DNA of 64,000 bases, taken from positions 29,698,001 through 29,762,000 of the forward strand of contig CM059448.1 in assembly GCA_030390025.1 (NCBI GenBank). The letters are read 5' to 3'. The DNA comes from Squalus acanthias (lineage: Eukaryota). This document shows positions 5,401 to 63,824 of the stretch, in pieces. The notes beneath the pieces were generated by a model. The model worked only from the letters and a program-made list of their open reading frames with translations, did no database searches and was not told where the DNA came from. The position numbers and the translations under genes are program-made. Numbering within the stretch: position 1 is the stretch's first letter; each line of letters starts with the position of its first letter.

Positions 5401-5559
5401 GAGGCTCTGTATTGTTCAGTCACTTTCTATTTTCAGACTTTGCTTGTTATTGAGCTTGTGGCCTTGGATTGCAGGATTTCAGAATGTGGACAAAATTAAT
5501 TGCAGCTTTGCTATTTGCACAGAAAAATTGAGCAATACAGTTATGCATGCTACAAACTA

Positions 5560-5905
5560 AAAGAAAAACGTGCATTTATATAGTGCCTTATATTTCTCAG
5601 GACATCCCAAAAGACTTTGTAGATAGTGAATTATCTTTGAACAGTTATTGTGCATTTTGTGCACTGAAAGATCCCACAAACAGCAAATAAGATGAGTAAT
5701 TTTGTTTTTGATGGTGTTGTTTGAGGGAGGAATGTTGGCCAGTACACTGGAAGAACGCTTCGAAAAGTGAAATGAGATCTTTTATGTCCAGTTTAACAGG
5801 CAGTAGGACTGCGGCTTAATGTGTGCCTTGCGACTGCACGATACACCGAGATTATGTGATGGAGTGGGACTTGTGCCTCTGACTTTAGATAATAGCAACT
5901 GAGCC
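5560..5905 (-). mobile_element. Deu-domain SINE (SacSINE1/AmnSINE1-like), degraded
   Basis: Begins with the reverse-complemented L2-like tail tgcatttatatagtgcctt..ggacatcccaaa and is colinear with the better copy at 8394-8770. Confidence 0.65.
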
Positions 5906-8393
5906 AAGCCAACTTTGAAATACTTTGAAAACGATTCCCTTGTGTTTAGTTATCGTTGCCCTGCACTCTCAGTGAGAGACAGACGTGCTGTAACCAGCAA
6001 CTACACCGAGCAGCCTCTAAATACGTTCCGAAAAAGAATTACTGGCCAAAATACTGCTCTGGAACAATATTTACCTGAGATGAAAAGAAAGAACAGCAAA
6101 TGCTGAAAGTACAGTCGAAAATACAAGGCACTTGTCTTTTTTAAAAAAAAAACTGACCAGCGCTTAGAAAATCAACGAGCAGAGTCCCGAGATAATCCCA
6201 GGGCAGTTTACAGGCTTATTGCAAGCACAAAGAGATCCTGTTTTCTTCAAACATTTTGAAGTCTTTGAAGAAGACTGTTATTTGTTAAAAGCAGACTGTG
6301 TTCTTGAATTGGTTCTATGGCCTATTGGCCACGCACAATAGAGTCCTGTGGTTTTCTTCTGAAGCTAAACTAAGATTGTATCTTGACTTTATTTTTGTAT
6401 TTACAATATTAAGAAGCTTTTATTTGTGACATGACCATAAAATCAGACGCATGTGTCTTTCACCTATTGGTTCCAACTCACATGACCTCTCTTTCAAGTG
6501 CCCTGAATGAAACACTCTTCCAGACGACCTTCGGCTAGTTTTCTATTGCTGCTGGGTATCTGCGGCACGCTGCTTTACCCCGAGAGGAGCAAGCTGTGCA
6601 GGGAATGCGTGGCGGCGGTCTTCGTGCCTCAGTCCAATGTCTCTGGTGTACGGAGCTCCGTCTCTGCTCGCTGTGTCCCAGGCTGTCGAGCATCAACCTT
6701 TGCATGAGTGTGAAGAAACCTTTTCTTCGTACAAACGTGTTGCTTGAATTTCAGAAAAGCGGCTACAATTTTGTTTCTTTATAAACGCATTCCCTCACTG
6801 ATAATTGATTATATATATTTTCTATACTCCAGGCACTAACAGTTAACCAGTTTATGGCAATCCATTTACTCAATTCAGTTTTTTTTTGGTCAGCTGCGTG
6901 TCTGACACATGCAAAAACCCGTCACCATATTTGAGACTCTGAACCAAGCAAGCAAGAAATCTACATGTAAAATTTCTGTTTACCTGATGGAGGTGCACTC
7001 CTCACAAGGGCATACGACACATACCCAATCCAGAGAGCATCGGCACAAGTTGGTAGAACCAAGGTTTAGAGCCCCCTCCCCCCCCAAAGTGCGCACAGGG
7101 TTCTACTGGTGTTTAACCACCTGGACCTATGCAGCTTACTAGTGCAGAGCACTGGTTAGCTTCCTACTGCTTGTCCGACCAGGAGCACCCTACCTGTTGG
7201 GGCTTTGGCTTACGAGAGTTGCAGCCTCCAATGGCAGGTCTATCCCTCCAGGTTCCATTAGTGAGCCAGAGTGGCTGGTAAATCATCATCAATGCCCGAA
7301 CGACTGCAGACCTTCCTGGTTCAGATATCAGATCACCAAGTCTGCCGCAGTTCTATCGCCAGGCATCTCATCTTGGAGCGACTTCAACCCCACCGAGACA
7401 CTACCTACCCCTCCAGCTCAGCCCAAGGAGATCAGTCACCAGTTAGTCGTTAGGCAACTAGATTTGTGGATTTAGCATAGTCTCACTCTTAGCTGTAAAA
7501 CACTCTTCGCAAGGACAGCTATTGTCACGCGTACCGAGGGTTTATAGACGAAAGCAAATGTTATATTTATTTAGAAATGAAGAGTAATGTAAAGCACAGA
7601 AATCGGTATATGCTTAAAAAATGATGAGTCCATAATGGGTTAGTTATCCTTACCTTTGAATTAAATATGAATCTCTAAATTGAATGCACGGTTTTGATTT
7701 CTGTCACGGTGAGTTCAGAAAGTTTCATCTCAGTGTGTTGTACCAACACTTGTTCTGTTTTAAACTCTGCCTTTACTCTCTTGTATTAAAACCAATTAAC
7801 TCTGACCTCTGCCACCTTCAATAATGCTTCATGTATGCACCTTGGCCTAGCTATAACCAATGGGTTGGGACATCAAATGTAGTTTGTAATAACGAGGTGT
7901 TTGTTGAACTGAGTTGCACTGTATTTGTAATACTGCAGCTCTGTTTGGCTCCTCTCAGATTGAGTGCCGTACTCTCACCGACTGTGCGTGCACGAGGACC
8001 GGAAGCACAGTGAGCAGGAGGTCAATACAGAGCAATTTCCAGCTATGGCATCGGGAATATAGGCAAAGGACAAGACGTATGTTTGTTATAACTGTCCCTT
8101 CCCTACAGTAATGTCCATTACACATCTTAATACTGGTGAACAGATGTGTAGAACACAATGTTGAATATCCTGAAGATAACAACACTTGCACATGTCTGTC
8201 AATTATGATGTCCAAACAATAGAGCAAAACTGATCTTTCACATCAAAGGGACAGTGCATTGATTAAATCAGGGAAACGAGCTGCTTTGATCTTTTAAGTA
8301 ATTGAAACCAGCAATTCGAGCTGCTTTTGCATTGCAGCCTGGGTCTCGGGAGAGCAGTCTGACTGAGCGGCTCTCCCACGTTTAGCTTGTAAT

Positions 8394-8770
8394 AGAAAGA
8401 ACTCGTATTTATATAGCGCCTTTCACGACCTCCGGACATCCCAAAGTGCTTTACAGCCAATACAGTACTTTCGAAGTGTAGTCACTGTTGTAATACAGGA
8501 AACACGACAGCCAATTTTGCGCACAGAAAGCTTTCCACATCTGTTTTAGTGATGTTGGTTGAGGGATAAATATTGGCCGGGACACCGGGGAGAACTCCCC
8601 TGTTCTTCTTCGAAATAGTGCCATGGGATCTTTTACCTCCGCTTGACAGGGCAGACGGGGCCTCTGGTTTAAAGCCTCATCCGAAAGACGGCACCTCTGA
8701 CAGTGCAGCACTCCCTCAGTACTGCACCAGGGTATCAGCCTGGATTTAGTGCTCCAGTCTCTGGAGTCTG
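8394..8770 (-). mobile_element. Deu-domain SINE (SacSINE1-like), best-preserved copy
   Basis: Contains gccatgggatctttta..gggcagacggggcct..gtttaa..ctcatccgaaagacggcacctc.gacagtgcagcactccctcagtactgcac (recalled Deu-domain core, reverse complement) plus an L2-type 3' tail. Confidence 0.8.
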
Positions 8771-9999
8771 TTAACTGGCAGCACTGAGGGTCCCGTGATT
8801 GTGAGAATGTGCCGTGACATTTTGACCAGCACTCTGGTGTAGAGAAATGACATAGTGACGCCAATATGAGCTAATCGGGGAACGTTTCGTGTGGTGACAC
8901 CCTGAATCAACCTCATTACATCGCCACTGAAACTACTAGCCTCAGTTAAGCCAGGCCACAGCCTAAAAACGAGTGGGGCAAACGGGCCTTAATTGCTATC
9001 CATCTAACAAACAAAATCCGCAGGATCACCTTGATGTGGCCACCAGTGACAGGAGACCTGTGGCCAAAAGTAAAAGCGGCTACAAATTCAGCTTCACCCG
9101 ACAGAGTCTCCCCTCCAGCAATGTTGGATATGGTTCAAGTGCTCAGTAAGCTGCGAGGATTATTCCGAGCTGGCGAGGAAGGCATGGAGAGAGTTGAATA
9201 CTGTGCACACTGACCCAGCTTGTGGTGCAGAGGCTGTGTACTGGTATTGTACACACTGAGAGCGAGATGCTAAAGATGATGGTGTCGCTTGTTCTGTTTA
9301 AACTGAAAGGTCCTGCAAGAAGACTGCTATTTAACGTAAACTGTGACGGGGCGTGCTAGAGCGGTCACTGAGAAGACCTCGATCACATGACCCTGAAGTG
9401 TTGAGGATGATTAAATAGAGACACATTCTGCAGCCGTGCCTCTGATGCAGTGGTAGTCGGAGCTGTACTCCTGGTCTGTCTTTGAGTGACTGGTGCCTGT
9501 ATAACGAAGTGTGTCTGGATCTTATCTGAAACGCACCTGCAGGATCTATCCCATAAAACCAGAAAGCTGGAAACGGTGTTTGAAGGGTGGAGGGCTGAGA
9601 TGGAGTAAGCTGGGTAGCTACCTAGCGATGCTGCGAAAGCCAGCCATTTGCACCATTCAAGATGGGGGTAGAGTGTAACATTTGCATTATATTGTAGACA
9701 CAAGGCGAGCCCTGTGTTCTATCCTGAATTATCTCTGCAGTAAGTCACTGGGTGTCCTGTTATTTGACTCCCTCACCTCCATATGCTCCTTGTTCTATTG
9801 GAAGCGGAGGCCTGTGACGAGGTAAGGGCAGCACTGAAGACAGCATTGCTTCGTTCACCAAGGGCTGCTTTACAAAGTCTTAACTGAAAGGAAACCTCTT
9901 CCTGTCAGCGAGGTTATAGATTACGACCTTACACAAAGATGAGTGTACCAATCACTCCTTGCCATAGTAATGGCTACCCAACTTTCACCAGTAGGCTGA

Positions 10000-21138: not shown

Positions 21139-23200
21139 TACTGGTACAGTACAGTGAGAGAGTGACACATTACTGGTACACTACATTGCGAGTGACACAT
21201 TACTGGTACAGTACAGTGAGAGTGACACATTACTGGTACAGTACATTGAGAGAGTGACACATTACTGGTACACTACATTGCGAGTGACACATTACTGGTA
21301 AAGTACAGTGAGAGTGACACATTACTGGTACAGTACATTGAGAGAGTGACACATTACTGGTACACTACATTGCGAGTGACACATTACTGGTACACTACAT
21401 TGCGAGTGACACATTACTGGTACAGTACAGTGAGAGTGACACATTACTGGTACAGTACATTGAGAGAGTGACACATTCCTGGTACAGTACAGTGAGAGTG
21501 ACACATTACTGGTACACTACAGTGAGTGACACATTACTGGTACACTACAGTGAGTGACACATTACTGGTACACTACAGTGAGTGACACATTACTGGTACA
21601 GTAGAGTGAGAGTGACATGTTACTGGTACAGTACAGTGAGACACATTACTGGTACAGTACAGTGAGAGAGACACATTACTGGTACAGTACAGTGAGAGTG
21701 ACACATTACTGGTACAGTACAGTGAGAGTGACACATTACTGGTACACTACAGTGAGAGAGTGACACATTACTGGTACACTACAGTGAGAGAGTGACACAT
21801 TACTGGTACACTACAGTGAGAGAGTGACACATTACTGGTACAGTAGAGAGAGAGTGACACATTACTGGTACACTACAGTGAGTGACACATTACTGGTACA
21901 GTACAGAGAGATTGACACATTACTGGTACACTACAGTGAGTGAGTGACACTTTACTGGTACACTACATTGAGAGAGTGACACTTTACTGGTACACTACAT
22001 TGAGAGAGTGACACATTACTGGTACACTACATTGAGAGAGTGACACATTACTGGTACACTACATTGAGAGAGTGACACATTACTGGTACACTACAGTGAG
22101 AGTGACACATTACTGGTACACTACAGTGAGAGAGTGACACATTACTGGTACACTACAGTGAGAGTGACACATTACTGGTACACTACAGTGAGAGTGACAC
22201 ATTACTGGTACACTACAGTGAGAGAGTGACACATTACTGGTACACTACAGTGAGAGTGACACATTACTGGTACAGTACAGTGAGAGTGACACATTACTGG
22301 TACAGTACAGTGAGAGAGTGACACATTACTGGTACAGTACAGTGAGAGTGACACATTACTGGTACACTACAGTGAGAGTGACACATTACTGGTACACTAC
22401 AGTGAGAGTGACACATTACTGGTACACTACAGTGAGAGTGACACATTACTGGTACACTACAGTGAGAGTGACACATTACTGGTACAGTACAGTGAGAGTG
22501 ACACATTACTGCTACAGTATAGTGAGAGAGTGCCGCATTACTGGTACAGTACAGTGAGTGACACATTACTGGTACAGTACAGTGAGAGTGACACATTACT
22601 GGTACACTACAGAGAGTGACACATTACTGGTACACTACAGTGAGAGTGACACATTACTGGTACACTACAGTGAGAGAGTGACACATTACTGGTACACTAC
22701 AGTGAGAATGTGACACATTACTGGTACAGTACAGTGAGAGTGACACATTACTGGTACAGTACAGTGAGAGTGACACATTACTGGTACAGTACAGTGAGAG
22801 AGTGACACATTACTGGTACAGTACAGTGAGAGTGACACATTACTGGTACAGTACAGTGAGAGTGACACATTACCTGGTACAGTACAGTGAGAGTGACACA
22901 TTACTGCTACAGTATAGTGAGAGAGTGCCGCATTACTGGTACAGTACAGTGAGAGTGACACATTACTGGTACACTACAGTGAGAGAGTGACACATTACTG
23001 GTACACTACAGTGAGAGAGTGACACATTACTGGTACACTACAGAGAGTGACACATTACTGGTACACTACAGTGAAAGTGACACATTACTGGTTCACTGCA
23101 GTGAGAGTGACATTACTGGTACACTACAGTGAGAGAGTGACACTTTGGTTCAGTGCATTGAGAACACTACAGACTCCTATTGGTGTAGTACAGTGAGTGA
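21139..23200 (+). repeat. Minisatellite, ~30-bp unit (28-32), about 65 copies
   Basis: Unit attactggtaca(c/g)tacagtga(ga)ngtgacac. Length variation comes from the embedded GA dinucleotide run; edges are degenerate. Confidence 0.97.
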
Positions 23201-24182
23201 CAAAGACACCAACCTCTCCTACTTGTACTATACAATGAAAGATCACTGACACAGACAAAGGCACACCCACCTTGTGCCTTGCCAAATATCCTTTGAAGCA
23301 TTCTGTGCCTCCCAGGAGGTTGAGATGTGTCCCAGCAGTTGGGCTGAGTACACCATGCAGGCTGGGTTTCTGCAAACCATCTTTACGATGTTGACTAAGA
23401 ATGAGATCGCACATCGGCCTGTGCCCAGCTGGCAGTAGATGAGCAGAGATGAAAGTGGAAAGTGAAGTCCCGCACCACAGTAATGATTCCTGTGCACAAA
23501 CAGGAAGATGCAAGTTACATTTCAATTGCACTTTTCCTTTGATTTGATTCCAAGTGTAGTTTAATTTTTAATCAAGTTACCATATTGCCTGGAGTATGAC
23601 CTGCTTATCACCTCCTCAAATACAGTATTTACAGAAAGGCTCATATTACAGCAGTGCGCTCTGGGTGCTTTGGTGTTTGATGATTGGCTTTTGGTGAGAC
23701 CGGAAAGGACTGGGTACAATGCCCCATTTGTATATAATTCTTCTGCAACTGAAACAGATGCCAGCTGGAACATCTCGTCTCCACGGATGAAATTCAATGA
23801 AGTGCGAGGCTGGTGAGAACAAAAAAGGAGTTTGAATTTCACAGTCAATAAAACTTCAGAAGTTTCATCATCGCCTTAAACACGTTTCCTGCGTTACTGA
23901 GGTAACAGCTGGCTGAATATGATGAAGGAGCCATGATAGGCAAGGTGGCCTACCTCCAGCAGGAGTGTGGTGGTCTCTTGGTCAGAGAGGTTGGTAGATC
24001 CAGCAGGAGAGTGATGCAGTCCCGATCAGGGTGGGGGTGGTGGTTATGATACTTTCAGTTGGAGGTGCCACTGTAGACGGATGGGGGTGCGGCGGGGGGG
24101 ATATTTCTATTCACAGCCTCAACTGGCTCATCTAATGAATGCTTTGTGACAGAATTGTGCTTTGTTTTGGATGGAGCCACCA

Positions 24183-31580: not shown

Positions 31581-34409
31581 CACCGTGAAGTCAGATTATA
31601 TATGAGGTGTTTTTTTGCCCAGGCCAAAACTGGATGGGGATGGAACGTTTCCAAAAGGACAAGTGACCCACTTGTACACACTTGCAAGGACCTTAAAAGG
31701 CAGCCATCGAACTTGGACTTTTACTGTCCAGTTCGCAGTTATCAAAATTACAAGGCGGTCCACTCGAAATCAGACTGGTGACTGGGCCAACAGACACCTG
31801 CAGTCTTCCTGCCGGTGCACACTACTGATATGTCAGTGCCCAACATTCCATGCAGCAGGGGGATCCCAGTGGGCTGTTCCAGCACAAATTCCTGCCCCGT
31901 GTTTCAGAGGCAAGTGTTTGAATCCTGCCTGACCCAAACCATTAATTGTTTGTCTGGGAGAACGTGGCTCCTAATTTCACTTCCAGCGCCAAGGGAAATA
32001 ATTATGGGGTGTTGGAAATTTAGGAGAGGAAGGAGCCAATGGGACAATAGAAGATTGCTAGTGTTCAGTTGTAAACTTTGGTCACACAGGCAACCAAAAT
32101 AGCATGTATAGCTGATAGTTGAAGGTTTGTCTGTAGTTAGGTCACTTGCCTTGATCAGTACTGACTATTTGGCACAGTAAATCAGAGAGGTATGAAATGT
32201 CAAAAATTCAAACCTAGCATTTACTTTAGTTGAGTTGTGACAGAATAATTGTTTCTTGGTTGATACTTTCATACCCGAGAACCTTTTATAAGAGCCAAGT
32301 GCTTCCAGGCAAAGCAATTAACTGCCAAGTTCTACTAGGACAGTCTGGTGCCATAAGCACTGGGAACACCTGCCTCCCACGCACAGCACTGAGAGTTTGT
32401 GCCAGGATTATCTCACCGGGATCCTCCTGCTTGGAAGCTGTCCGCTTAGGGAACAATGGAGCACAATAATTGCTGCTCTTCCAGTTACCTTCCAGCTTTA
32501 ATTGAATTTACCCAAACTCTGCGAAGAATGAGCCCCAGCGATCTGATCCTTTAAAGGTGTTTTCCTCTTTATATTCAGACTGTGCCAGTGAGAGTCGCGG
32601 ATGCCTGCTACAGACAGGGCCTTATTGAGATAGGGGAGGCAAACTCAAGGGTCCTTCCTTTTGCACCTTCCATGTGCCCAATTAGAACTGGGAGAGCGTC
32701 GCTCAGATCGCAACTCTGCTGGAGCATCACTCTCCAACATCAACATGCAGGTGTCTTAAGGCTTTGTGCATCTGATGAGGTCTTCCCTAACATGTTTAAC
32801 CACAGCATGTTTGTTTTGGGCTACGTGCAGTGGTTATTTGAGGGTGATATGAACAGCAGTGGTTCCTAACTCATCTCTATTCAGCACAAGTTCTGAGACG
32901 AGTAGACAGGTGGTGTTTCCTATGTTAGGAAGTGTTAAAGTGTTTTGATTTATTTCCTTTGTCCTATTCTGTTCTGTTTTTCCTGAAGTGAGTTTTATGG
33001 AATCTCCAGGGATGAACTAGCGTCAGTCGATTTTGTGTTATGCTTCATTGACTGGAAGTTCTCAAAACGTAGCATCAATGCCTCCTTATACCTGCTCTCT
33101 CCTCTAACCCTTACCCACCCTGACCCTTCTCCACCAATTCCATCCAGCCCCCTCCTCTTCCATCTCTAACCCTGCCCCACCTCCTCTTCCAGCCCCATCT
33201 CCTTCAGTTCTGCTCCAGCTCCTTTCTTGCTCTTCCTCCATCACAATTTCTTCTCCAGCTCTTCTTTCTTCCCGTTCTCTCCATAGCTATTCACTTGGGT
33301 AAGGGGTTTGAGTGACCCCTCCTGGGTAAGGTGTTCACTAGGGATCCACAATTGAGTAGTATATTTTCAGTTAGGTTGCAATGTTCAACGCCACGTCGGA
33401 GTTGAACAGAATTTTTGGAACGGCTGATGTGTTGCACCTCAATTGAACTGATGAGACATCATGGAGTGTTTCTGCCAAACTCCACCTGACGCAACCTTGC
33501 AGAACTGCTGCTCCTGGAGGGGGTTTCCAATATGATTCACGTCGGATTAACAGCGATATAAGATTTGCAGACTTTGTCTTAGGGACATCGTACAGGACTA
33601 GATTCCGTTAACTGCAGAAGCCAAACAGCGGCTTGTTTAGGCACTGAATCAGTACAATGTAATCTCTGCCTCAAGTTCTCCTCATTATTTAGTGGGCTCC
33701 TTCAAATCCAGTAGATCTCAAACTGGGGTGGGACAGGAGGCTTGTCCAGCTGGGATGGGGGAGGCGGGGGGGGGGACTCCAATTCTGTGCAACTGGGGGA
33801 AAGCTATTTTTAAGGCCGTTTTCTAGTTCTGAATAATGTAGAGTGTGTTTTGGCTGTGTTTGTGTGGAGACATTGAGGAGCACAGTTTGCAGATGCGGTT
33901 GAACGAGTTGTGCAGGCACTCCATCTCCAACATCACTCAACAAAGGAGGAGCAAGACAATAATAATAGAGGAGGAGGTGGGGTTGGTGATGGGATGTACC
34001 TGTTTGGGCTGTAGCAGGCAGGAGTGAACTGGGTGGAAGGAAGCAGAGGCAATATGTTCATGGGAGCAGGAAAGTTGTGCTTTTATTCTGATTTTTTTTT
34101 CCCCCTCCCTCCCCCATTCCTTGTAATGTGACTTGGGTCATTAAAGGTCAGGTATAAATGAAGGTTGTTGTTGGGGAAGCTACAATGTTGTTAAAACATA
34201 CTGTGCATAACCAGGTACGGCGGTTCTTGCTTTTTATCTCCCTTTTCAGAACGATGGTGATACCAACTTATTGTCAGGTAAAAGCTTTTCCTTTTAGTGT
34301 CTCTTTAAAAAGTTACTTCAAAATTCATCTGCTAATTAGGGGCTGAAAAGAAAAAATCAAAGCGCAGAAAAGAAAGAAAAGTTGGGGGTGTTGATGGGAA
34401 CTTTATGAA

Positions 34410-34872
34410 TCTGTGGGGGTGTCGGGGGGCACTTCCTGTGTCTCTGGGGGATGTTGGTGACCACTTCCTGTGTCTGAGGGGGATGTTGGTGACCACTTCC
34501 TGTGTCTGGGGCTGTCTGTGAGCACTTCCTGTGTCTGTGGGGGTGTAGGGGGGCACTTCCTGTGTCTGTGGGGGTGTAGGGGGGCACTTCCTGTATCTGT
34601 GGGGGTGTCGGGGACTTCCTGTGTCGGTGGAGGTGTCGGGGGGCACTTACTGTGTCTGTGGGGGTGTCGGTGAGCACTTCCTGTGTCTGTGGGGGTGTCG
34701 GTGAGCACTTCCTGTGTCTGTGGAGGTGTCGGTGAGCACTTCCTGTGTCTGTGGGGGTGTCGGTGAGCACTTCCTGTGTCTGTGAGGGTGTCGGTGAGCA
34801 CTTCCTGTGTCTGTGGGGGTGTCGGTGAGCACTTCCTGTGTCGGTGGGGGTGTCGGTGGAACTTCCTGTGTT
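34410..34872 (+). repeat. 31-bp minisatellite, about 15 copies
   Basis: Unit gagcacttcctgtgtctgtgggggtgtcggt, with variant blocks. Confidence 0.95.
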
Positions 34873-35311
34873 GGTGGGCACCATGAAAATCTCGAGGTGG
34901 ACACTTGATGCATCACCTTCCCCCAACCGCCATATTGAGCCTTTTACTGTTGCATGGAATTTCTTGTTCATTTTTACCCATTTCGCACTAAAGCAAAAAT
35001 ATTCAAATGCATTCGAACAGGTTGACATATTCGATGCTGATAACATTAACCATAAATGAGGAAGGCATCATTTTTGGGATGTGAATGGCCATGAGAATAT
35101 TGTGATGGGGTAATCGGGAGCCACTGTTCTAATCTCACTTTCTTTCCTTTTTGGTGACCGTTCATGACCAGCACTGTGAGCGAGGTGTCTAATAACTGGT
35201 GCTGTGCTGCTCTCCCCTATAAATCCAACTCTTGGCTCCAGTTGCTGCAATAAAAGGTACTGGACATTTCTTCCAGTGCCGACCGACAGCCCCGGAGGCT
35301 GCAGCCATTCG

Positions 35312-42380: not shown

Positions 42381-43480
42381 AGAGTTCCTTCTGGATAATG
42401 AAGTGGGACAGATAATTGATGAGAGTAGGGGAACAATTGGGGAAATAGTAACCACAACACGAGTTAAGTCAAAATTCATTGAGCTGATACGGGAACTGGG
42501 CCGAAAAGTTGCCAAATAATGTCGACGGATCAACAGTGGAAATTCTTGATAAGTCACCAGGACCAGATGGGATGCATCCTAGGATGTTGAGGGAAGTCAA
42601 GGCAGAAATTGCTGAGGTACTGGCCATAATCTTCCAATCCTCCTTAGTTATGGGGGTGGTCCCAGAGGACTGGAGAATTGCAAATGTTGCACCCTTGTTC
42701 AAAAAAGGGTGCAAGGATAAACCCAACAACTACAGGCCAGTCAGTTTAACCTCGGTAGTGGGGAAGCTTTTAGAAATGATAATCAGGGACAAAGTTAACA
42801 GTCACTTGGACAAGTATGGATTAATTAAGGAAAGCCAGCACGGATTTGTTAAAGGCAAATCATGTCTAACTAACTTGATTGAGTTTTTTGATGAGGTAAC
42901 AGAGAGGGTTGATGAGGGCAATGCGGTTGGCATGGTGTACATGGACTTCCAAAAGGTGTTTGACAAAGTGCCACATAATAGGCTTGCCAGAAAAGTTGAC
43001 AGTGGCAACATAGATACGAAATTGGCTAAGTAACAGGAAACAGAGAGTAGTGGTGAACGGTTGTTTTTCGGACTGGAGGAAGGTATACAGTGGTGTTCCC
43101 CAGGGGTCGGTACTAGGACCACTGCTTTTCTTGCTATATATTAATGATGGACTTGGGTGTACAGGGCACAATTTCAAAATTTGCAGTCGACACAAAACTT
43201 GGAAGTATAGTGAACAGTGAGGAGGATAGTGTTAAACTTTAAGAGGATATAGACAGGCTGGTGAAATGGGCAGACACGTGGCAGATGAAATTTAACGCAG
43301 AAAAGTGCGAAGTGATAGATTTCGGTAATAAGAACGAGGAGAAGCAATATAAACTAAATGGTACAATCCTAAAGCGGGTGCATGAACAGAGAGACCTGGG
43401 GCACAAATCGTTGAAGGTGGCAGGGCAGGTTGAGAAAGCGGTTAAAAAAGCATACGGGATCCTGGGCTTCATAAATAGAG

Positions 43481-43637
43481 AGGTCGCACAACACCAGGTT
43501 ATAGTCCAACAGTTTTATTTGAAATCACAAGCTTTCGGAGCTATCGATTGCCCCTTCCTCAGGTGAAGTAAATAGATACAGAATCGCCAAAGCATATATA
43601 GATAGAGAACAAAGCATGTGTACCTTACAATTGCAGA
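43481..43637 (-). mobile_element. Penelope-like element fragment (family 1), copy A, 11-bp TSD
   Basis: Interrupts the CR1 GFINR|GIE coding sequence. TSD cataaatagag at 43470-43480 and 43638-43648. 88/89 identical to 49102-49190. Confidence 0.8.
43525..43566 (-). ncRNA. Minimal type I hammerhead ribozyme motif (PLE family 1)
   Basis: Minus strand: tcac-CTGAGGA-a-ggggc-aatcgata-gctcc-GAAA-gc-t-t-gtga. Stem I 4 bp, stem II 5 bp with one G-U, palindromic AGCT at stem III. Confidence 0.7.
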
Positions 43638-44269
43638 CATAAATAGAGGCATAGAGTTCAAATGCAAGGAAGTTACGACCCTTTTATAAAACACTGGTTC
43701 GGCCTCAGCTGGAGTATTGTGTACAATTCTGGGCACCGCACTTTAGAAAGGATGTGAAGACCTTCGAGAGGGTACAGAAAAGATTTACGAGAATTATTCC
43801 AGGGATGAGGGACTTCAGTTACATGGATAGACTGGAGAAGTTGGGGTTGTTCTCCTTAAGAGCAGAGAAGGTTGAGAGGAGATTTGATAGAGGTGTTCAA
43901 AATCATGAGGGATCTGGACAGAGTAGATAGGGAGAAACTGTTCCCATTGGCAGAAGGGTCGAGAACCAGAGGACACAGATTTAAGGTGATTGGCAAAAGA
44001 ACCAAAGGCGACATGAGGGAAAACTTTTTTATGCAGCGAGTGGTTATGATCTGGAATGCACTGCCTGAAAGGGTGGTGGAGGCAGACTCAATCGTGACTT
44101 TCAAAAGGGAATTGGATAAGTACCTGAAGGGGAAAAAATTTGCAGGGCTATGGGGAAAGGGTGGGGGAGTGGGACTAGCTGAAGTGCTATTGCAGAGAGC
44201 CAGCACGGGCTCGACGGGCTGAATGGCCTCCTTCTGTGCTGTAACCATTCTATGATTCAAATATGACAT

Positions 44270-46260
44270 GCATAGAATATAAAATAAATACATCCCTGCC
44301 GGGTAAAAAGGGAGTGCATCAAAGAATAGAGTTTCATGGATAAATACATGGATTGCAACTAAACTGAAACTTAAAAGGGAGGCATATGATAAAAGTAGAG
44401 CTAACAGTATTAAGATAATCATGAGGAATGTAGAAAGTGTAATGGGGAGATGAAAAGGAAGCTTAGAAAAGCTAAAGGGGAATACTAAAAAGAGCTAGCA
44501 GTTAAAAGAAAACAAAATTGTACGGGCTTTTATACGCATTATAAAGTAAAATAATTAGAGAGGGTAGGAGAGCTCACTTGAGGGAGGGAATCTAATTGTG
44601 GAGGATGAAGGGATGTCATATTACATAAATAATTTGCATTTTTTTTTACAAATGATGGTGGAAGTCAGAATGTTGATGTATTAGAGGAGGATGTGAAACA
44701 TTTAATGGAGGTAATTGTAGAAAAGGGATTGGTTCAGAAACAATTAGCAGGCCTCGGTGGATAAGTCACCAGACTCTGATGAAATGTAGCCTAGGTTATT
44801 GAAAGAAATCAGAGAGGAAATAGCAGAGGCTCTGGCCACAATTTTTAAATCCTAATTAAATATACAGTACAATTCGTGCTGTTGAACTGTAGTCACTAAC
44901 ACATTTGAAGCTAGAGAAGGATAAACCGGGAAACTATAAACATTAGTTGCGGGCAAACTCTTAAAATCCATAATTTGAGATGAAATTAATAAGCATTTAG
45001 AAATGCATGGATTAATCAAGGACAGATTTGTTAAAAGAAAGCTGTGTTTGACAAATTTAATACAGTTTTTTTTGCAGAAGTGACCACTTGGATAGATGTT
45101 GTTTATATGGATTTTTAGAAGGCATTTGATAAAAGTATCTCCGAAAACAGTTGTTAGAAAAATGCAGATGTGTATGTGTGTGGTAGAAGAGGAAAATTAG
45201 TAACATGGATAGAAGGTCAGTTGAAGGGTAGGAAACAAAGAGCAAGAGTAACTGGTTGTTGCTCAGATTGGAGAAGGGTTGGAAGTGGTGTGCTCCAGGG
45301 GTCAGTGGGCCTACTTTCATTTTGGATATGTGCAGATGATTTTGATTGATTATAGGGAACAAAATCTCAAAATTTGCTGACGATACAAAAGTATAAGGTT
45401 TTGCAAACAGCAGCAAGGACTGTAAAAGACTTCAGGAAGGCATAGGATAATGAGCAAACAGGTGGAATATGCAACTTATTGTGGATATGTATGAGGTAAT
45501 ACATTTGAGAGGAAAATCAAGTAATGGGATTATATGCTCTGTTGAAAGACGCTGAAGGGTATGGGTGAACAGAGATCTAGGGGTTCAAATACATAATTCC
45601 CTAAAAGTGACAGTGCGGGTAGATAAAACTATAAAAGAAGCCAACAGCATTTTGGGTTTTGTTAATCGGGACATAGAGTACAAGAGTAAAGAAGTCATGA
45701 TAAATTTGTATAAACATTGCCAGTACTGTGCGGCTCTGGGCACCCCATTAAAACCATAGAGAACGTACAGCATGGATTCACCAAAATGATGCCAGGAATG
45801 GAAAAGTAAAGTTATGCGGTGAGACTTGAAATACTGGGACTGTTTCTACTGTAGCAGAGAAAGCTAAGAGGAGAACTGATGGAGGTTATTAAGATTAAGT
45901 TTTGATCGTGAAGAGAATGGAGGTTATTGAGATTAAGTTTTGATAGTGAATGGGGGAAAGACTATTTTCTCTGGTTGGGAAGTCGGTGATGAGGAGGTCA
46001 TCCATTTAAAATGATCAATAAGAGAGCGAGGAGCGAGATTCAGAGAAATTTCTATATGGTAAGGGTTGTTGGAGCGTGGAATGCTTATCTACAGGGAGTG
46101 GTCGAGACGGGGACTACTGCATCTTTTAAGGGAAAATTGGATAAATATTAGAAGCAGAGGAAGATGGAGAGGAGGGGGAACAGGGCAGGAGGATTAATTT
46201 TGGATTGGTCTCACAGAAAGGCGGTGCATACACTAGGGGATAAATGCTCTAAACTTCACC
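44270..46260 (+). mobile_element. Older, heavily decayed CR1 LINE (ORF2 to 3' end)
   Basis: Degenerate gataagtcacc, gatttttagaaggcatttgataaa, ggtgtgctccaggggtcagtg, aaatttgctgacgatacaaa (KFADDTK), RDLGVQIHNSLKV..ANSILGFVNRDIEYKSKEV. Confidence 0.85.
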
Positions 46261-46879
46261 ACAGTAAACACTGCTACAGTTAGTGTTGAGTGAAGCTTGT
46301 GCCTATTGAGAACCCATTTGATTCCCAGCAGAAAGTCATGTGTAAAAAGATGATGGGTTAAAGGGTCCTGTACGCACCATTACTGTTTGCCAGACCATAT
46401 TTAGAAGCCACCAGATCATGTGGATACCAGTCACTGAGATGCAAGTGGATGTGGTCAGACACAGAGGACAGTTAATTTTCTCATCATTTTCAAAGAGATT
46501 CGCTATAATGAAGAGGAGAGTTGTAGAGAGAATGGAAAATTCGGATTACATGCTGAGTAGAGATTACTGCAGACTATTTTGCTAATTAATTCTTCCAGAT
46601 TTAAAATATCTTTCTTTATTCCAACAAAGTGTTGTGGTATTGAAACCAAATTCTTCTGGTTTTCCTAGCAGCCTCCGTGAATGTGGTTTTTATGCAGTTT
46701 TTTAGGCTGTACGTCTTTTCATTCAGCTTCAATCAGTACCGTTAAATCACGTCACTTTTGAAATCCTCACAAAGAATTCTTTTGTGTGTGTTTTTTTTTC
46801 CACTCCCTGACTTGCCTGATCCTGCCCTTTTCTTATTTCTGTTAGAATTCAGGAATTTATTCAAAAGCTGTTCGTTTAC

Positions 46880-46984
46880 CATAGCTGCTCCGGGGTAACG
46901 TGCAGCCCGCTCCCCTTCAGTGCTCCAGTGCTCATCCATTGGTGCATCACTTGACGTAGAATCTCCAGTTCCTCCCGCTCACTT
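46880..46984 (-). CDS. Candidate 105-bp internal coding exon of an unidentified gene
   Basis: Acceptor cactcctatctttcag|, donor atg|gtaaac, length divisible by 3. Only one open frame: SEREELEILRQVMHQWMSTGALKGSGLHVTPEQL. No homology recognised. Confidence 0.3.
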
Positions 46985-49054
46985 CTGAAAGATAGGAGTG
47001 TGCAATCGTAAAAAAGGATTTTGTTTGAAGTATTTATCCTCCTTTTACCTTGACTCTGAAACATTCCATACTTCAGCCGAGAGTTGTTTCCAGGCCGTAG
47101 TTTGAGAGCAGCCCTGGGGCTCGCCCCTTTACCGGCGGGGAAACACTAAGGTGGCCCCCCCCTGCGGACGGCTCACGACTGGGAACTGACCTGTAAAGGG
47201 AGGTGCAGGCACACCCCATAATCCTCCCACTCCCATGATGGATGTGCTCCGTGTTGTCTAATATGATGCAGTCCAGCCCAATTTCAGACTTAAGCCAAAC
47301 AGATGCATCATATAATCCCCTCCTTTTCAATGTACTGGGGCAGATACTGTCCTAGAACTTAGTAAAGCAAACTGGTGTGATTACAATTTCATTTTCAGAC
47401 AGTACAACACAAGCAACAGTGGGGTGGGGAAATGTACTTGTCCGACACGAGTCCTGTGTCTGTATTAAATGGGAATCCTGCACATTGCGTTAAAACTATT
47501 TGTACAGCACTGCATATAGCCAAGGACACTGAGATTGTGCACAGATTCTCCCAAGACAGGATTCCATCACAAATGATGCCGGGTCCCATATTCCTGAATC
47601 AATAGCTGCAGCACAAGGATTTCATAATTTATAGGAACAGGAAAAGCCCATTCCACCCAAAAGGCTCTTCTCCGTCAGACCGATCTTAACCCCACCAGAT
47701 CTACCATTTCACTCTCTCCCTCAAACTCTTCTTTCAGTAGACATTCCATTCTCTCCGGTTCCATTAAACACATACTCTCCTTTAGCATCTTGCTCCTATA
47801 CTAATTATATTACCGTTAACCACATTGAACTGCAACTCATTCTAACTGCCCCGTCACCTAAACTACCTGTGTCTGTCTGAATTTCTAACTTGATATCTTC
47901 CTTAATGCATACTTCACAACTATACCCTGTGAGCATTTTAATGGCAACCAATAGTCAAAGGAAGGGTGGGGCCGATTAGGGACCAAAAAGGCGATCTTCT
48001 TGTGGAGGCAGAGGGCTTGGCTGAGGTACTAAATGAGTACTTTGCATCTGTCTTCACTAAAAAAAAGAGGATGCTGCCAATGTCGCAGTAAAGGAGGAGG
48101 TAGTAGAGAAATTGGATAGGATAAAAAGGAGGGCCTGAAAGGGTTAGCAGTCCTCAAAGTAGAAAAGTCACCTGGTTGGGATGGGGTGCTTTCCAGTTAC
48201 TGAGGGAAGTAAGGGTGGAAATTGCGAAGGCTCTGGCCACAATCTTGCAATCCTCCTTAAATATGGGGGAGATGCCAGAGGACTGGAGAATTGCAACTGT
48301 TGCACCCCTGTTCAAAAAAAAGGGGGAGCTTTTAGAGACAATCTGGGACAAAATTAATTGGCACTTAGAAAAGTATGGGCTCATAAATGAAAGTCAGCAC
48401 AGATTTATTAAAGGCAAATCGTGTTTGACTAACTTGATTGAGTTATTTGATGAAGTAATGCAGCGGTTGATGAGGGTAGTGCGGGTGATGTGCATATGAA
48501 CTTTCAAAAGGAGTTTGATCAAGTACCACATAATAGGCTTGTTAGCAAAATTAAAACCCATGGTATTAAAGGGACAGTGGTAGCATGGATACAAAATTGG
48601 CTGAGGGACAGAAAGCAGAGAGTTGTGGTGAACGGTTGTTTTTCAGACTGAAGGGAAGTATACAGTGTTGTTTCCTAGGGGTCAGTATTGGGACCACTGC
48701 TCTTTTTGATATACATTAATGTCCTGGACTTGGATATACAGGGCATCATTTAAAAGTTTGAAGATGATACGAAACTCAGAAATGTAGTTAACGATGAGGA
48801 GGATAGTAACAGACTTCAGGAGGACATAGACAGACTGGTGAAATGGGCAGACACATGACAGATGAAATTTAATGCAGAGAAGTGTGAAGTGATGTATTTT
48901 GGTAGGAAGAATGAGGAGAGGCAATATGAACTAAATGGTACAATTTTAAAGGGGGTGCAAAAGCAGAGAGACCTGGGGGTGTATGTACACAAATCTTTGA
49001 AGGTGGCAGGACAAGTTGAGAAGCATATGGGATCCTTGGCTTTATAAATAGAGG

Positions 49055-49284
49055 TCATGATGCGGAGATGCCGGTGTTGGTCTGGGGTGGACAAAATTGA
49101 GAGGTCGCACAACACCAGGTTATAGTCCAACAGTTTTATTTGAAATCACAAGCTTTCGGAGCTATCGATTGCTCCTTCCTCAGGTGAAGTCACCTGAGGA
49201 AGGAGCAATCGATAGCTCCGAAAGCTTGTGATTTCAAATAAAACTGTTGGACTATAACCTGGTGTTGTGCGACCTCTCAATTTT
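49055..49284. mobile_element. Penelope-like element fragment (family 1), copy B, fold-back structure with TSD
   Basis: TSD ataaatagagg at 49044-49054 and 49285-49295 (14 bp if the shared ttt is counted). Perfect arms 49093-49187 / 49190-49284. Hammerhead motif followed by AATAAA on both strands. Confidence 0.85.
49190..49231 (+). ncRNA. Minimal type I hammerhead ribozyme motif; mirror copy on the minus strand at 49146-49187
   Basis: tcac-CTGAGGA-a-ggagc-aatcgata-gctcc-GAAA-gc-t-t-gtga; predicted cleavage after 49227. Confidence 0.75.
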
Positions 49285-49299
49285 ATAAATAGAGGCATA

Positions 49300-49844: not shown

Positions 49845-50649
49845 TGTGGTAACACAATACAGCTTCCTGTGACTCGAACTTTATTGCATCACTTCCTGTG
49901 ATTAGTCCAGGATAAATACTGGACTGATCAGTGGGATCCTGGAGAGGCATAGAGTAAGACCTCTTTTGTATGTAGCACCTTTTTAGTTGATTAAAGCTTA
50001 CTTTAAGTTCACCACGCGTAAGGCTCATTCTTACGACAATGCCAGGGGATGATATTGTACCAGGCACATCTCTGGGCTCGCCAGGTGCCTCTCATCATGA
50101 TCTGGATCTGACGCCGGCTGGTACCTCACTCCAGCGTGCCGACCTGGGGCAGACTGACTATGAGCCCGTCGGGGCTCACACGCGCAGCCACGATCCACCC
50201 CGTACCGTACGCTCGGAAACGGATCTGCCACAGCCCTGCCCGACACCCGTTCGGGCACCAGTACACAGTCAGGATCGTCCTGACCCCTCACAGAGCGGGC
50301 TGGATCACTTGGACTCTGGTCCACGGCCCGCGGCGGGTAAACTGGCTAGGGGCCCTCTACCGCTACGAGAACCCAAACGGGTGCGGCTCTCCCTCGTCCA
50401 GCGGCTACGAAAGGGAGGGAGCATCCCGGCCTCCTAATCTTTTGGGGGGGGAGAATGTGGTAACACAATACAGCTTCCTGTGACTCGAACTTTATTGCAT
50501 CACTTCCTGTGATTAGTCCAGGATAAATACTGGACTGATCAGTGGGATCCTGGAGAGGCATAGAGTAAGACCTCTTTTGTATGTAGCACCTTTTTAGTTG
50601 ATTAAAGCTTACTTTATGTTCACCACGCGTAAGACTCATTCTTACGACA
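49845..50649 (+). mobile_element. Mini LTR retroelement (TRIM-like or internally deleted Gypsy-type), 805 bp
   Basis: 194-bp LTRs at 49845-50038 and 50456-50649, TG..CA ends, 2 mismatches. PPT ggggggggagaa at 50444-50455. 5-bp TSD caccg/cgccg. ATTAAA in the LTR. No TGG-type PBS after the 5' LTR. Confidence 0.92.
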
Positions 50650-50729
50650 CGCCGCTTCTACGATAGTTGCATGTATCTCAGGCAGCATGAAAATTATTAC
50701 TATCTTGTCCAGTAACAAGTGGATTGTGT

Positions 50730-53700
50730 AAACCAGGCACTCTGTCTTTGTGTAAGGAGCAGGGTTAGATAGACCAGGCACTCTGTCCCTGTGTGAGGAG
50801 CGGGGTTAGATAGACCAGGCCCTCTGTCCCTGTGTGTGAGGAGCAGGGTTAGATAGACCAGGCACTCTGTCCCTGTGTGAAGAGCAGAGTTAGATAGACC
50901 AGGCACTCTGTCCCTGTCTGTGAGGAGCCGGGTTAGATAGACCAGGCATTCTGTCCCTGTGTGTGAGGAGCAGTGTTAGATAGACCAGGCATTCTGTCCC
51001 TGTGTGTGAGGAGCAGGGTTAGATAGACCAGGCCCACTGTCCCTGAGTGTGAGGAGTAGTGTTAGATAGACCAGGCACTCTGTCCCTGTGTGAGGAGCAG
51101 GGTTAGATAGACCAGACATTCTGTCCCTGTGTGAGGAGCAGTGTTAGATAGACCAGGCATTCTGTCCCTGTGTGAGGAGCAGTGTTAGATAGACCAGGCA
51201 TTCTGTCCCTGTGTGTGAGGAGCAGTGTTAGATAGACCAGGCACTCTGTCCCTGTGTGTGAGGATCAGGGTTAGATAGACCAGGCATTCTGTCCCTGTGT
51301 GTGAGGAGCAGGGTTAGATAGACCAGGCACTCTGTCCCTGTGTGAAGTGCAGGGTTAGATAGACCAGGCACTGTGTCCCTGTGTGTGAGGAGCAGGGTTA
51401 GATAGACCAGGCATTCTGTCCCTGTGTGAAGAGCAGTGTTAGATAGACCAGGCACTCTGTCCCTGTGTGTGAGGAGCAGGGTTAGATAGACCAGGCACTC
51501 TGTCCCTGTGTGTGAGGAGCAGGGTTAGATAGACCAGGCATTCTGTCCCTGTGTGAAGAGCAGTGTTAGATAGACCAGGCACTCTGTCCCTGTCTGTGAG
51601 GAGCAGGGTTAGATAGACCAGGCATTCTGTCCCTGTGTGAAGAGCAGTGTTAGATAGACCAGGCACTCTGTCCCTGTGTGTGAGTAGCGGGGTTAGATAG
51701 ACCAGGCACTCTGTCCCTGTGTGTGAGGAGCAGGGTTAGATAGACCAGGCACTGTGTCCCTGTGTGAGAGGAGCAGGGTTAGATAGACCAGGCACACTGT
51801 CCCTGTGTGAGAGGAGCAGGGTTAGATAGACCAGGCACACTGTCCCTGTGTGAGGAGCGGGGTTAGATAGACCAGGCCCTCTGTCCCTGTGAGAGAAGCA
51901 GGGTTAGATAGACCAGGCACACTGTCCCTGTGTGAGAGGAGCAGGGTTAGATAGACCAGGCACACTGTCCCTGTGTGAGGAGCGGGGTTAGATAGACCAG
52001 GCCCTCTGTCCCTGTGAGAGGAGCAGGGTTAGATAGACCAGTCACACTGTCCCTGTGTGTGAGGATCAGGGTTAGATAGACCAGGCACTCTGTCCCTGTG
52101 TGTGAGGAGCAGGGTTAGATAGACCAGGCATTCTGTCCCTGTGTGTGAGGAGCAGGGTTAGATAGACCAGGCATTCTCTCCCTGTGTGTGAGGAGCGGGG
52201 TTAGATAGACCAGGCCCTCTGTCCCTGTGTGTGAGGAGCAGGGTTAGATAGACCAGGCACTCTGTCACTGTGTGTGAGGAGCAGGGTTAGATAGACCAGG
52301 CACTCTGTCCCTGTGTGTGAGGAGCAGGGTTAGATAGACCAGGCACTCTGTCCCTGTGTGTGAGGAGCAGGGTTAGATAGACCAGGCATTCTGTCCCTGT
52401 GTGTGAGGAGCAGGGTTAGATAGACCAGGCATTCTCTCCCTGTGTGTGAGGAGCGGGGTTAGATAGACCAGGCATTCTGTCCCCGTGTGAGAGGAGCAGG
52501 GTTAGATAGACCAGTCACACTGTCCCTGTGTGTGAGGAGCGGGGTTAGATAGACCAGGCACTGTCTCCCTGTGTGAGGAGCAGGGTTAGATAGACCAGGC
52601 ACTCTGTCCCTGTGTGAGGAGCAGGGTTAGATAGACCAGGCACTCTGTCCCTGTGTGTGAGGATCAGGGTTAGATAGACCAGGCACTCTGTCCCTGTGTG
52701 TGAGGAGCAGGGTTAGATAGACCAGGCACTCTGTCCCTGTGTGAGAGGAGCAGGGTTAGATAGACCAGGCACACTGTCCCTGTGTGAGAGGAGCAGGGTT
52801 AGATAGACCAGGCACACTGTCCCTGTGTGAGGAGCGGGGTTAGATAGACCAGGCCCTCTGTCCCTGTGAGAGAAGCAGGGTTAGATAGACCAGGCACACT
52901 GTCCCTGTGTGAGAGGAGCAGGGTTAGATAGACCAGGCACACTGTCCCTGTGTGAGGAGCGGGTTAGATAGACCAGGCCCTCTGTCCCTGTGAGAGGAGC
53001 AGGGTTAGATAGACCAGTCACACTGTCCCTGTGTGTGAGGATCAGGGTTAGATAGACCAGGCACTCTGTCCCTGTGTGTGAGGAGCAGGGTTAGATAGAC
53101 CAGGCACTCTGTCCCTGTGTGTGAGGAGCAGGGTTAGATAGACCAGGCATTCTCTCCCTGTGTGTGAGGAGCAGGGTTAGATAGACCAGGCACTCTGTCC
53201 CTGTGTGTGAGGAGCAGGGTTAGATAGACCAGGCACTCTGTCCCTGTGAAAGGAGCCGGGTTTGATAGACCAGACACTCTGTCCCTGTGTGTGAGGAGCA
53301 GGGTTAGATAGACCAGGCACTCTGTCCCTGTGTGAGGAGCAGGGTTAGATAGACCAGGCACACTGTCCCTGTGTGTGAGGAGCAGGGTTAGATTGACCAG
53401 GCCCTCTGTCCCTATGTGTGAGGAGCAGGGTTAGATAGACCAGGCACACTGTCCCTGTGTGTGAGGAGCGGGGTTAGATAGACCAGGCACACTGTCCCTG
53501 TGTGTGAGGAGCGGGGTTAGATAGACCAGGCATTCTGTCCCTGTGTGTGAGGATCAGGGTTAGATAGACCAGGCATTGTCCCTGTGTGTGAGGAGCAGGG
53601 TTAGATAGACCAGTCACACTGTCCCTGTGTGAGGAGCAGGGTTCGATAGACCAGGCATTCTGTCCCTGTGTGTGAGGAGCAGGGTTAGATAGACCAGACA

Positions 53701-53828
53701 CTCTGTCCCTGTGTGAGGAGCAGGGTTAGATAGACCAGGCCCTCTGTCCCTGTGTGTGAGAGCAGGGTTAGATAGACCAGACACTCTGTCCCTGTGTGTG
53801 AGGAGCAGGGTTAGATAGACCAGGCACA
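50730..53828 (+). repeat. Minisatellite, 41/43-bp unit, about 73 copies
   Basis: Unit gtccct(gt)ngaggagcagggttagatagaccaggcactct; the embedded GT run gives +/-2 bp variants. Confidence 0.97.
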
Positions 53829-63289: not shown

Positions 63290-63565
63290 ACCCACTCTCC
63301 GTGTACTCCTCCCCGCGACACCCGCTCTCCGTGTACTCCTCCCTGCGACACCCGCTCTCCCCGTGTACCCCCCGCGACACCCGCTCTCCCCGTGTGCTCC
63401 CCGCGACCCCCGCCCTCCCCGTGTACTCCCCGCGACACCCGCCCTCCCCGTGTACTCCCGGCGACCCCCGCCCTCCCCGTGTACTCCCCGCGACACCCGC
63501 TCTCCCCGTGTACTCCCCGCGACACCCGCCCTGCCCGTGTACCCACTGGACACCCGCCCTGCCGT
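63290..63565 (+). repeat. CpG-rich 29-bp minisatellite, about 9 copies
   Basis: Unit gtgtactccccgcgacacccgc(c/t)ctcccc. Confidence 0.93.
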
Positions 63566-63824
63566 GTCTGTGTGTTGTTGCATCACCTGATCTGATGTTC
63601 GCACCTCCATTATTGTAGTGCCCACTCTCTAATAAAAAGTCATCCTACTCTGTGCCTCTTGTTGGCTTCTGAAGAGTATGCAGCGGCGAAGTTCAATTAT
63701 ATCTCCGTTCACATTCCCACCTTTGTCTAGACAGAAGTCTGGAGCCTCCCAAATTTACATGACAAACAACCACAAATAAGGAAGTTTCTGGTTTGGGACT
63801 GTTGTGGAGCAGAAGTAGTTGGGA

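Follow-up and report, generated by a model that had tools for sequence, protein, structure and literature searches.

Two fragments of a Penelope-like element (PLE) interrupt the same codons of two long interspersed nuclear elements (LINEs) in a 64,000-nucleotide (nt) stretch of Squalus acanthias DNA (assembly GCA_030390025.1, 3.71 Gb; contig CM059448.1, positions 29,698,001 to 29,762,000; hereafter the window), which raises the question of whether a retroelement has come to use a LINE as its landing site. We found that the two inserts are independent events and that the element prefers a palindromic DNA motif, which is also used at non-LINE sites and has its best-scoring high-copy match at this LINE position. 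Both inserts are probably 5′-truncated copies of a young, Neptune-type PLE with this palindromic target motif, whose enzyme likely works as a dimer that makes a 12-nt staggered cut and primes from both ends.

In the window sequence, both inserts interrupt the GFINR/GI codons of two related LINE open reading frame 2 (ORF2) remnants. The first-pass annotation had read the locus in this way, and most of its description of the window held. The segment common to both inserts is 88/89 identical (the single difference, C/T, is at 43552), whereas the hosts share ~77–80% identity across ~500–570 nt upstream of the insert. Insert 1 is simple and insert 2 is a fold-back, with two arms that are identical at 95/95 positions and separated by a 2-nt spacer. 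The four LINE copies with a different sequence at the target position (~19210, ~29690, ~45660 and ~57780) are all empty. The target duplications were present at both inserts as described but are longer than had been claimed, at 11 bp for insert 1 (CATAAATAGAG, 43470–43480 and 43638–43648) and 14 bp for insert 2 (TTTATAAATAGAGG, 49041–49054 and 49282–49295). Insert 1 begins at an internal start site and lacks a tail and insert 2 runs from the tail to the internal site, which puts the two in opposite orientation classes. No PLE match other than these two inserts was found within the 64 kb. The features of the locus are as follows.

42545–44141, + strand: host 1, a degenerate CR1-type LINE ORF2 (reverse transcriptase (RT) and C-terminal part), split at GFINR/GI (tblastn coverage with natural LINE ORFs).
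43468–43480, + strand: left target copy of insert 1, the 12-bp core TTCATAAATAGA (43468–43479) plus one base common to the element (sequence; core limits from genome-wide junction classes).
43480–43637, − strand: insert 1, a one-armed, tail-less, 5′-truncated PLE pseudo-long terminal repeat (pLTR) end with internal start (matches the pLTR of L151, a full-length copy, at 98% over 174 nt; junction class n = 1,291).
43525–43566, − strand: putative minimal hammerhead of insert 1 (read by eye and folded).
43638–43648, + strand: right duplication copy of insert 1, CATAAATAGAG, with the first two T of the core missing (sequence).
47951–49054, + strand: host 2, a second CR1-type ORF2 remnant of the same family as host 1 (from their identity).
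49041–49054, + strand: left duplication of insert 2, TTTATAAATAGAGG, the 12-bp core and a GG shared with the element template (sequence).
49055–49189, − strand: insert 2 arm 1, from the tail start site, with the 38-nt tail and the pLTR end; hammerhead motif at 49146–49187 (98% to the L151 pLTR; junction class n = 845).
49190–49281, + strand: insert 2 arm 2, inverted and ending at the internal start site; hammerhead motif at 49190–49231 (95/95 to arm 1; junction class n = 1,393).
49282–49295, + strand: right duplication of insert 2 (sequence).

We take the host LINEs to be CR1 elements from their C-terminal motifs and 3′ repeat. A full-length relative (L216) carries Exo_endo_phos and RVT_1 domains, that is, an APE-type endonuclease and RT ORF2, an architecture common to many LINE clades. 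CR1 ORF2 made up 25% of the 200 kb in which we measured background, in agreement with the 22–34% given for CR1-group elements of elasmobranch genomes in the accessible text of PMC13343379.

Reuse of one LINE position across the genome

Exact junction patterns at the CR1 site matched genome-wide 845 times for the tail-left class, 1,393 for internal-right, 602 for tail-right and 1,291 for internal-left; reversed-pattern controls for all four classes gave no match genome-wide. Because the two internal classes represent opposite orientations, the site holds at least 2,684 insertions (1,393 + 1,291). Exact still-empty sites number 9,037, and since the patterns are of unequal length the raw ratio of 2,684 to 9,037 is not an exact occupancy. 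Tail junctions at any of 26 positions just downstream were absent genome-wide, in a control that used a single junction class and a longer anchor than the 845-match pattern and so is not strictly like for like. Across all subfamilies, 1,447 of 41,619 tail matches (3.5%, exact patterns) fall at the GFINR site. An initial DNA similarity search had returned 30 loci with only the window's own at the CR1 site; exact pattern searches overturned this apparent refutation, the similarity search having misled because it skips common words and favours rare variants.

We inspected 30 loci from each of the tail-left, internal-right and tail-right classes, and none from internal-left. Inserts ranged from 96 to 1,304 bp in the 22 of 30 tail-left loci with both ends in view, and several PLE haplotypes were present at the site. 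In all 39 two-ended loci, the right duplication repeated the host's own variant (three variants; ~42% agreement expected by chance). Occupied and empty hosts were intermixed in a tree of 53 host flanks, with 25 label changes compared with 25.0 after shuffling and few well-supported branches; the tree used 53 of 83 flanks, since the LINE match of the others was shorter than 300 nt, and a usable left flank was lacking at 9 of 30 orientation-B loci. The two window inserts are thus independent events, and the proposal of two separate, recent insertions by a PLE that strongly favours a particular sequence was borne out by the junction counts, the host-variant duplications and the tree, in which insert-bearing CR1 copies do not form one clade.

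Runs from other organisms contain 60–80% of the junction region's 10 words, and contigs of two of these organisms hold both the LINE and the PLE end, with the junction bridged by none of the pieces listed. A different element splits host 2 from 49302 onward, seven bases past the PLE site, and the downstream part of the host 2 LINE was not found nearby past it. At five loci (L038/L078, L084, L148, L243 and L268), an element starting GGGCT(G/C)GATTTT, perhaps a Harbinger, lies after GGCATAG, at the same place. A DNA-transposon hot spot possibly adjoins the PLE site.

A palindromic target motif

The first 100 of 14,747 young-subfamily anchor matches, in chromosome order, gave 82 insertion blocks; a second parse gave 84 (with a few incidental neighbours), 65 of which had a callable duplication. 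Thirty-two of these 65 insertions lie in CR1 ORF2 (p = 2e-5 against the 25% background) and 33 elsewhere, and 12 are at the GFINR site (95% confidence interval 11–30%). The 32 spread over several codon positions and LINE families. Other recurrent targets were the WLS(D/H)R.QR and (S/T)GEVP codons of other LINE families, as well as non-LINE repeats. Duplications measured 12–14 bp in 46 of 65 young insertions with a mode of 12, which was also the mode in an older subfamily (25 of 55).

A TG-N16-CA dyad centred on the duplication was present at 40 of the 65 sites, compared with 1.0 in shifted controls, and spacers besides 16 and 17 were at or near background. The dyad recurred at 20 of 29 de-duplicated sites outside CR1 ORF2 (0.6 expected). 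Among the 18 sites with duplications of exactly 12 bp, which leave no alignment freedom, 14 had TG, 14 had CA and 11 had both, against an expectation of 6% per side. The insertion-site motif approximates CnYTG(G/C)C-12 bp-G(C/G)CARnG, a palindrome flanking the 12-bp core. A matrix built from the 29 non-CR1 sites scored the two window targets at 14.2 and 18.0 bits, above the 13.3-bit maximum of the remaining 63,665 window positions, and the four empty LINE copies at 0.9, 7.3, −1.3 and 3.2 bits. Loci from the initial similarity search matched the motif weakly (6 of 18 at ≥5 bits, compared with 0.35). Nothing in the element's own sequence scores as a strong target (best 9.0 bits); the motif is therefore not copied from its pLTR.

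The preference is for a palindromic DNA motif, and the label 'LINE-targeting' in the first-pass annotation finds no support in that form, since 33 of the 65 duplication-bearing insertions lie outside CR1 ORF2. Nor are insertions dispersed over generic AT-rich sites; the TG-N16-CA motif marks sites both within and outside CR1. The GFINR codons form the main hot spot because they offer a near-ideal motif match in more than 9,000 still-empty exact copies. A strictly site-specific retroelement (R2-like or repeat-targeting Tx1-like) is ruled out by the share of insertions at the site, 12 of 65 in the young subfamily and 4 of 54 in the older one.

Two other repeats carry insertions. A second major PLE hot spot is a 67-bp tandem repeat with CCATCAAACACTCCCAGGGCAG, seen at L215 (G000:C1:4400001-4410000) and at seven of the sampled junctions, with unit scores of 12.7–14.6 bits; one copy had been in the matrix training set. 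A non-LINE repeat with CCCTGATTATAATCACTCAACCA (L158, L178, L220 and L230) has two insertions in the sample and scores 13.9–15.0 bits in background.

The motif explains most of the GFINR hot spot and leaves a residual CR1 excess. Several points weigh against a motif-only account. The observed GFINR share exceeds the 4–9% that the matrix predicts. That matrix rests on just 29 sites, all within the initial 19.5 Mb of a single chromosome, and of the 84 blocks 19 were dropped for lack of a callable duplication. Good sites are 2–3 times commoner in CR1 than in its own shuffles, and a match as good as the GFINR target arose in just 1 of 300 host shuffles, which leaves coincidence alone unproven. For the older subfamily, with 29,343 anchor matches and 68 blocks that yielded 54 scored sites, TG-N16-CA was present at 4 of these 54 compared with 0.9; the sharp motif is thus not shared by the whole family. 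The endonucleases of older subfamilies (L084, L090, L005, L013, L244 and L320) depart from that of the young copy L271 at a small number of recurring positions, in the linker and close to the CCHH motif, differences that run parallel to the looser target motif.

These results bear on the possibility that selection tuned the specificity of the young subfamily to conserved CR1 codons, making CR1 a true safe haven, an idea compatible with dyad-cutting chemistry. The excess of insertions in CR1 ORF2 fits it, as do the targeting of homologous codons (WLS(D/H)R.QR, (S/T)GEVP and GFINR) across several LINE families and the sharpening of the motif in the younger subfamily alongside a few endonuclease residues. 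Nine diverged CR1 ORFs contain 13 sites of ≥9 bits, compared with 4.9 in codon shuffles (0 of 200 shuffles that high), and of seven intact-ORF loci not chosen by site, three are at the GFINR site and one at another CR1 site. However, the insertions outside CR1 ORF2 show the same motif, and in the 200-kb background CR1 holds just 30–35% of 3–9-bit sites and a single one of the 14 that score ≥13 bits. DNA outside CR1 is likewise ~1.5-fold above its shuffles (63 compared with 38–43), which indicates that higher-order composition accounts for part of the CR1 excess. With the GFINR site removed, the CR1 share (20 of 53) is no different from 33% (p = 0.28). On balance, we consider selection-tuned CR1 targeting rather unlikely.

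Insert structure and a model for integration

At the CR1 site, host boundaries are fixed at the 12-bp core and the point at which the element begins ranges over 10 nt or more. Element starts occupy two windows offset by 38 nt (positions 12–21 and 48–60 after the anchor). Microhomology between primer and template, of 1–3 nt, averaged 1.6 nt over 68 junctions compared with 0.6 nt when shuffled (0 of 2,000 shuffles reached the observed mean). Two-armed inserts combined a tail arm with an internal arm in 77 of 78 cases (36 of 37 young, 41 of 41 older) and never two tails. In 40 young arm pairs drawn from all loci, including site-selected ones, the arms of one insert were discordant at 22 of 721 polymorphic cells, compared with 35% when shuffled, and 33 pairs were fully concordant. 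The N-terminal 330 residues of the protein are predicted to form a homodimer via helix 42–80, with a score of 0.50 compared with 0.06 for the best control. In a microbial calibration set, 21 of 30 solved pairs attained the mark for this score and none of 23 single chains did so; among animal pairs, 7 of 16 attained it. The dimer model had a pLDDT of 62–63, and its runs agreed in at least 75% of contacts.

These features suggest a model in which the GIY-YIG domain, with or without the Cys-rich linker, would read the dyad motif, and a dimer of the enzyme would cut both strands with a 12-nt stagger, leaving 3′ overhangs. Reverse transcription would then be primed from both cut 3′ ends, with both cDNAs made from one source transcript and the tail-primed cDNA displacing the internally primed one, before host repair joined the two cDNA 5′ ends head to head. 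Extension of one end alone would yield a one-armed insert such as insert 1. An anole PLE does cleave and extend both strands in vitro, from two start sites that bound its tail, and is predicted to dimerise (accessible text of PMC11167929). Other observations count against such a scheme. Seven of the 40 arm pairs were not fully concordant, and identical arms could also arise if one locus gave two transcripts or if inverted repeats were homogenised by repair. The dimer exists only as a model, and the cutting chemistry is inferred. In addition, the anole PLE in vitro began at a position lacking homology to the cut DNA, with a preference for ATT, in contrast to the shark element (PMC11167929).

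If priming happened only once, with the fold-back then produced by self-priming or a template switch and the second strand cut later at a loosely fixed distance, identical arms would be directly accounted for. Head-to-head arms with a tail at one end are a known PLE shape, and self-priming on an antisense template has been proposed for rotifer Penelope (accessible text of PMC3846280). One-armed calls, at 40 of 84 young and 25 of 68 older blocks, also fit this explanation. It accommodates less well the placement of both outer ends in the narrow start windows, with microhomology at each, the symmetry of the motif about the 12-bp core and the nearly equal orientations (1,393 compared with 1,291), and we regard it as improbable to a similar degree as selective tuning.

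We think it very unlikely that the target is chosen by base pairing of the cut DNA end with element RNA and not by protein recognition. ATAGAGG does resemble the template ATAGTGG, and AAATAGAG resembles AAATTGAG; nearly all orientation-A junctions listed read ATAAATAGAGG joined to TCATG, with GG matching the template, and microhomology is above chance. Yet the mean homology is just 1.6 nt, the informative positions (−4/−3 and +15/+16) lie outside the duplicated core, and the cut position stays constant while the RNA start ranges over at least 10 nt. Finally, a single CR1–PLE chimera amplified by CR1, or an insert copied between neighbours by duplication or gene conversion, would suit two near-identical inserts 5.6 kb apart but is effectively refuted by their opposite orientation classes and unlike extents, by the range of insert lengths (22 loci) and haplotypes at the site, by unclustered hosts whose duplications copy their own variants, and by the ~12 pairs within 6 kb and ~60 64-kb windows with two or more insertions that chance alone would produce from 2,684 sites.

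A bolder version of the double-priming model is that, within a recent subfamily, a vertebrate PLE evolved a restriction-enzyme-like dimeric endonuclease that reads TG-N16-CA, makes a fixed 12-nt staggered cut, writes cDNA on both ends from one RNA and is tuned to conserved RT codons of its host's commonest LINEs, making it a LINE parasite with a safe haven. We hold this composite to be doubtful, although still worth considering.

The element and its known relatives

Full-length units built outward from copies elsewhere have pLTRs, partial tandems and inverted 5′ copies (L151; L271–L280). The ORF of L151 has a frameshift near its end. An intact 892-aa ORF with RT and GIY-YIG domains, the full-length partner that the first-pass annotation had proposed looking for, was found at L271:3640-6318. 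Its RT domain matched Pfam RVT_1 (E = 1.4e-8), and the top Foldseek matches of a structure model of the protein (pLDDT 90.8) were TERT structures. The GIY-YIG match was marginal (PF01541, 22.9 bits against a cut-off of 22.6, with the C-terminal 142 aa only, and missed on the whole protein); the endonuclease motifs VVY..YIGET, KIIEQ and GLN are present. A CX2-5CxxC linker (CHGKLCKTC, residue 753), of a kind that Nematis has too, lies between RT and endonuclease, and a CCHH motif was assigned by eye within the endonuclease (Cys796, Cys800, His836 and His842). The 38-nt pLTR tail falls in the 30–40 bp range of PLE tails.

Judged from sequence, the element is an endonuclease-positive PLE with a telomerase-like RT plus a GIY-YIG domain at the C terminus, in a single ORF. 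The linker excludes the Penelope/Poseidon clade, which has none, and together with the CCHH motif is consistent with a Neptune-type element by the criteria in the accessible text of PMC8557442; Neptune was preferred to Nematis because of the vertebrate host range (bioRxiv 10.64898/2026.07.22.740005, accessible text). Protein homologues, unnamed or 'uncharacterized', come from sharks (82–94% identity) and turtles (43–47%), with the closest named relatives from sharks, and a sequence search of the PDB found no solved PLE relative (best E = 0.89). The arms of one insertion diverge by 0.43% in 34 pairs of the young subfamily and by 1.56% in 18 pairs of the older one, low values that indicate recent activity.

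The pLTR carries a putative minimal hammerhead. Read by eye and folding, it has a CUGAGGA core, a 5-bp helix II, GAAA, a palindromic AAGCUU and a UCAC/GUGA helix I. An Rfam search of the inserts gave no hammerhead match, and on the fold-back only sub-threshold microRNA hairpin models. The minimal hammerheads of metazoan PLEs have a short helix I, an extra base between 9 and 10.1, a G10.1-C11.1 pair and a palindromic helix III remnant (Cervera and De la Pena 2014, accessible text of PMC4209133); the motif here appears to have all of these features, with no difference seen.

Elsewhere in the window, two 194-bp direct repeats (49845–50038 and 50456–50649; 99% identical, ~420 bp between them) start with TG, end with CA and have a 5-bp flanking repeat with one mismatch, as in a miniature LTR-type element. 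Long tandem arrays at 21139–23202, 34383–34878, 50729–53828 and 63295–63567 are unrelated to the PLE inserts.

PLE integration is still poorly understood: the single full-length enzyme studied in vitro had two start sites and both-strand extension with no defined target. Natural integration products number in the tens of thousands in this genome and bear a signature that can be read, namely the dyad, the 12-bp core, and a tail arm and an internal arm of one haplotype. With an intact young ORF and a defined 32-bp substrate, the dimer and double-priming model is directly testable and, if true, would account for the head-to-head, one-tailed shape across PLEs. Close subfamilies with loose and sharp preferences offer a handle on the residues that set GIY-YIG specificity, and a sequence-selective retroelement that writes on both break ends would be relevant to RNA-templated genome-writing tools.

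We compared the element with known systems from the accessible text of the papers cited. In the full-text literature searched, which did not include most subscription papers, the notes of Repbase, the Penelope endonuclease paper of 2004 or the supplements of the papers cited, neither a palindromic target nor a LINE hot spot was found for any endonuclease-bearing PLE. Known PLE biases are towards AT-rich DNA and microsatellites, and towards 28S rDNA for endonuclease-less plant families (PMC8557442, PMC11167929); Penelope itself has only a moderate target preference and a variable distance between the two cuts (PMC8557442). Adineta vaga Penelope (Arkhipova et al. 2013, PMC3846280) similarly has inverted pLTRs with a tail on one, 8–10 bp duplications and one copy inside a non-LTR element; unlike the shark element, it is low in copy number, has no reported target consensus and has its fold-back ascribed to self-priming. 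Spike-moss PLE-X families also occupy a precise position of a multicopy sequence, 28S rDNA, but lack GIY-YIG and are confined to rDNA, whereas the shark element has an endonuclease and inserts genome-wide at its motif (PMC8557442).

Neptune/Nematis and Naiad PLEs (Craig et al. 2021, PMC8557442) share with the shark element the CX2-5CxxC linker before GIY-YIG, the CCHH motif, partial tandems, an inverted 5′-truncated copy and a 30–40 bp tail at one end only; they show a bias for microsatellites such as (TA)n, whereas in the shark element the target dyad is not repetitive and the modal duplication is 12 bp. The Poseidon PLE of Anolis carolinensis (PAc; Frangieh et al. 2024, PMC11167929) likewise combines RT and C-terminal GIY-YIG in a single ORF, with a hammerhead pLTR and an ORF start near the pLTR end. 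As in the shark element, two reverse-transcription start sites bound its tail; its both-strand cleavage and extension and its predicted dimerisation by a long N-terminal helix have counterparts that are suggested or predicted for the shark element. In the main text of PMC11167929, a term search for 'duplication' and 'palindrom' gave no occurrence, and no palindromic site is reported there. PAc prefers AT-rich DNA (ATT) and used a non-homologous start in vitro, whereas a Cys-rich linker, a bipartite motif containing GC, a 12-bp core and microhomology of 1–3 nt set the shark element apart.

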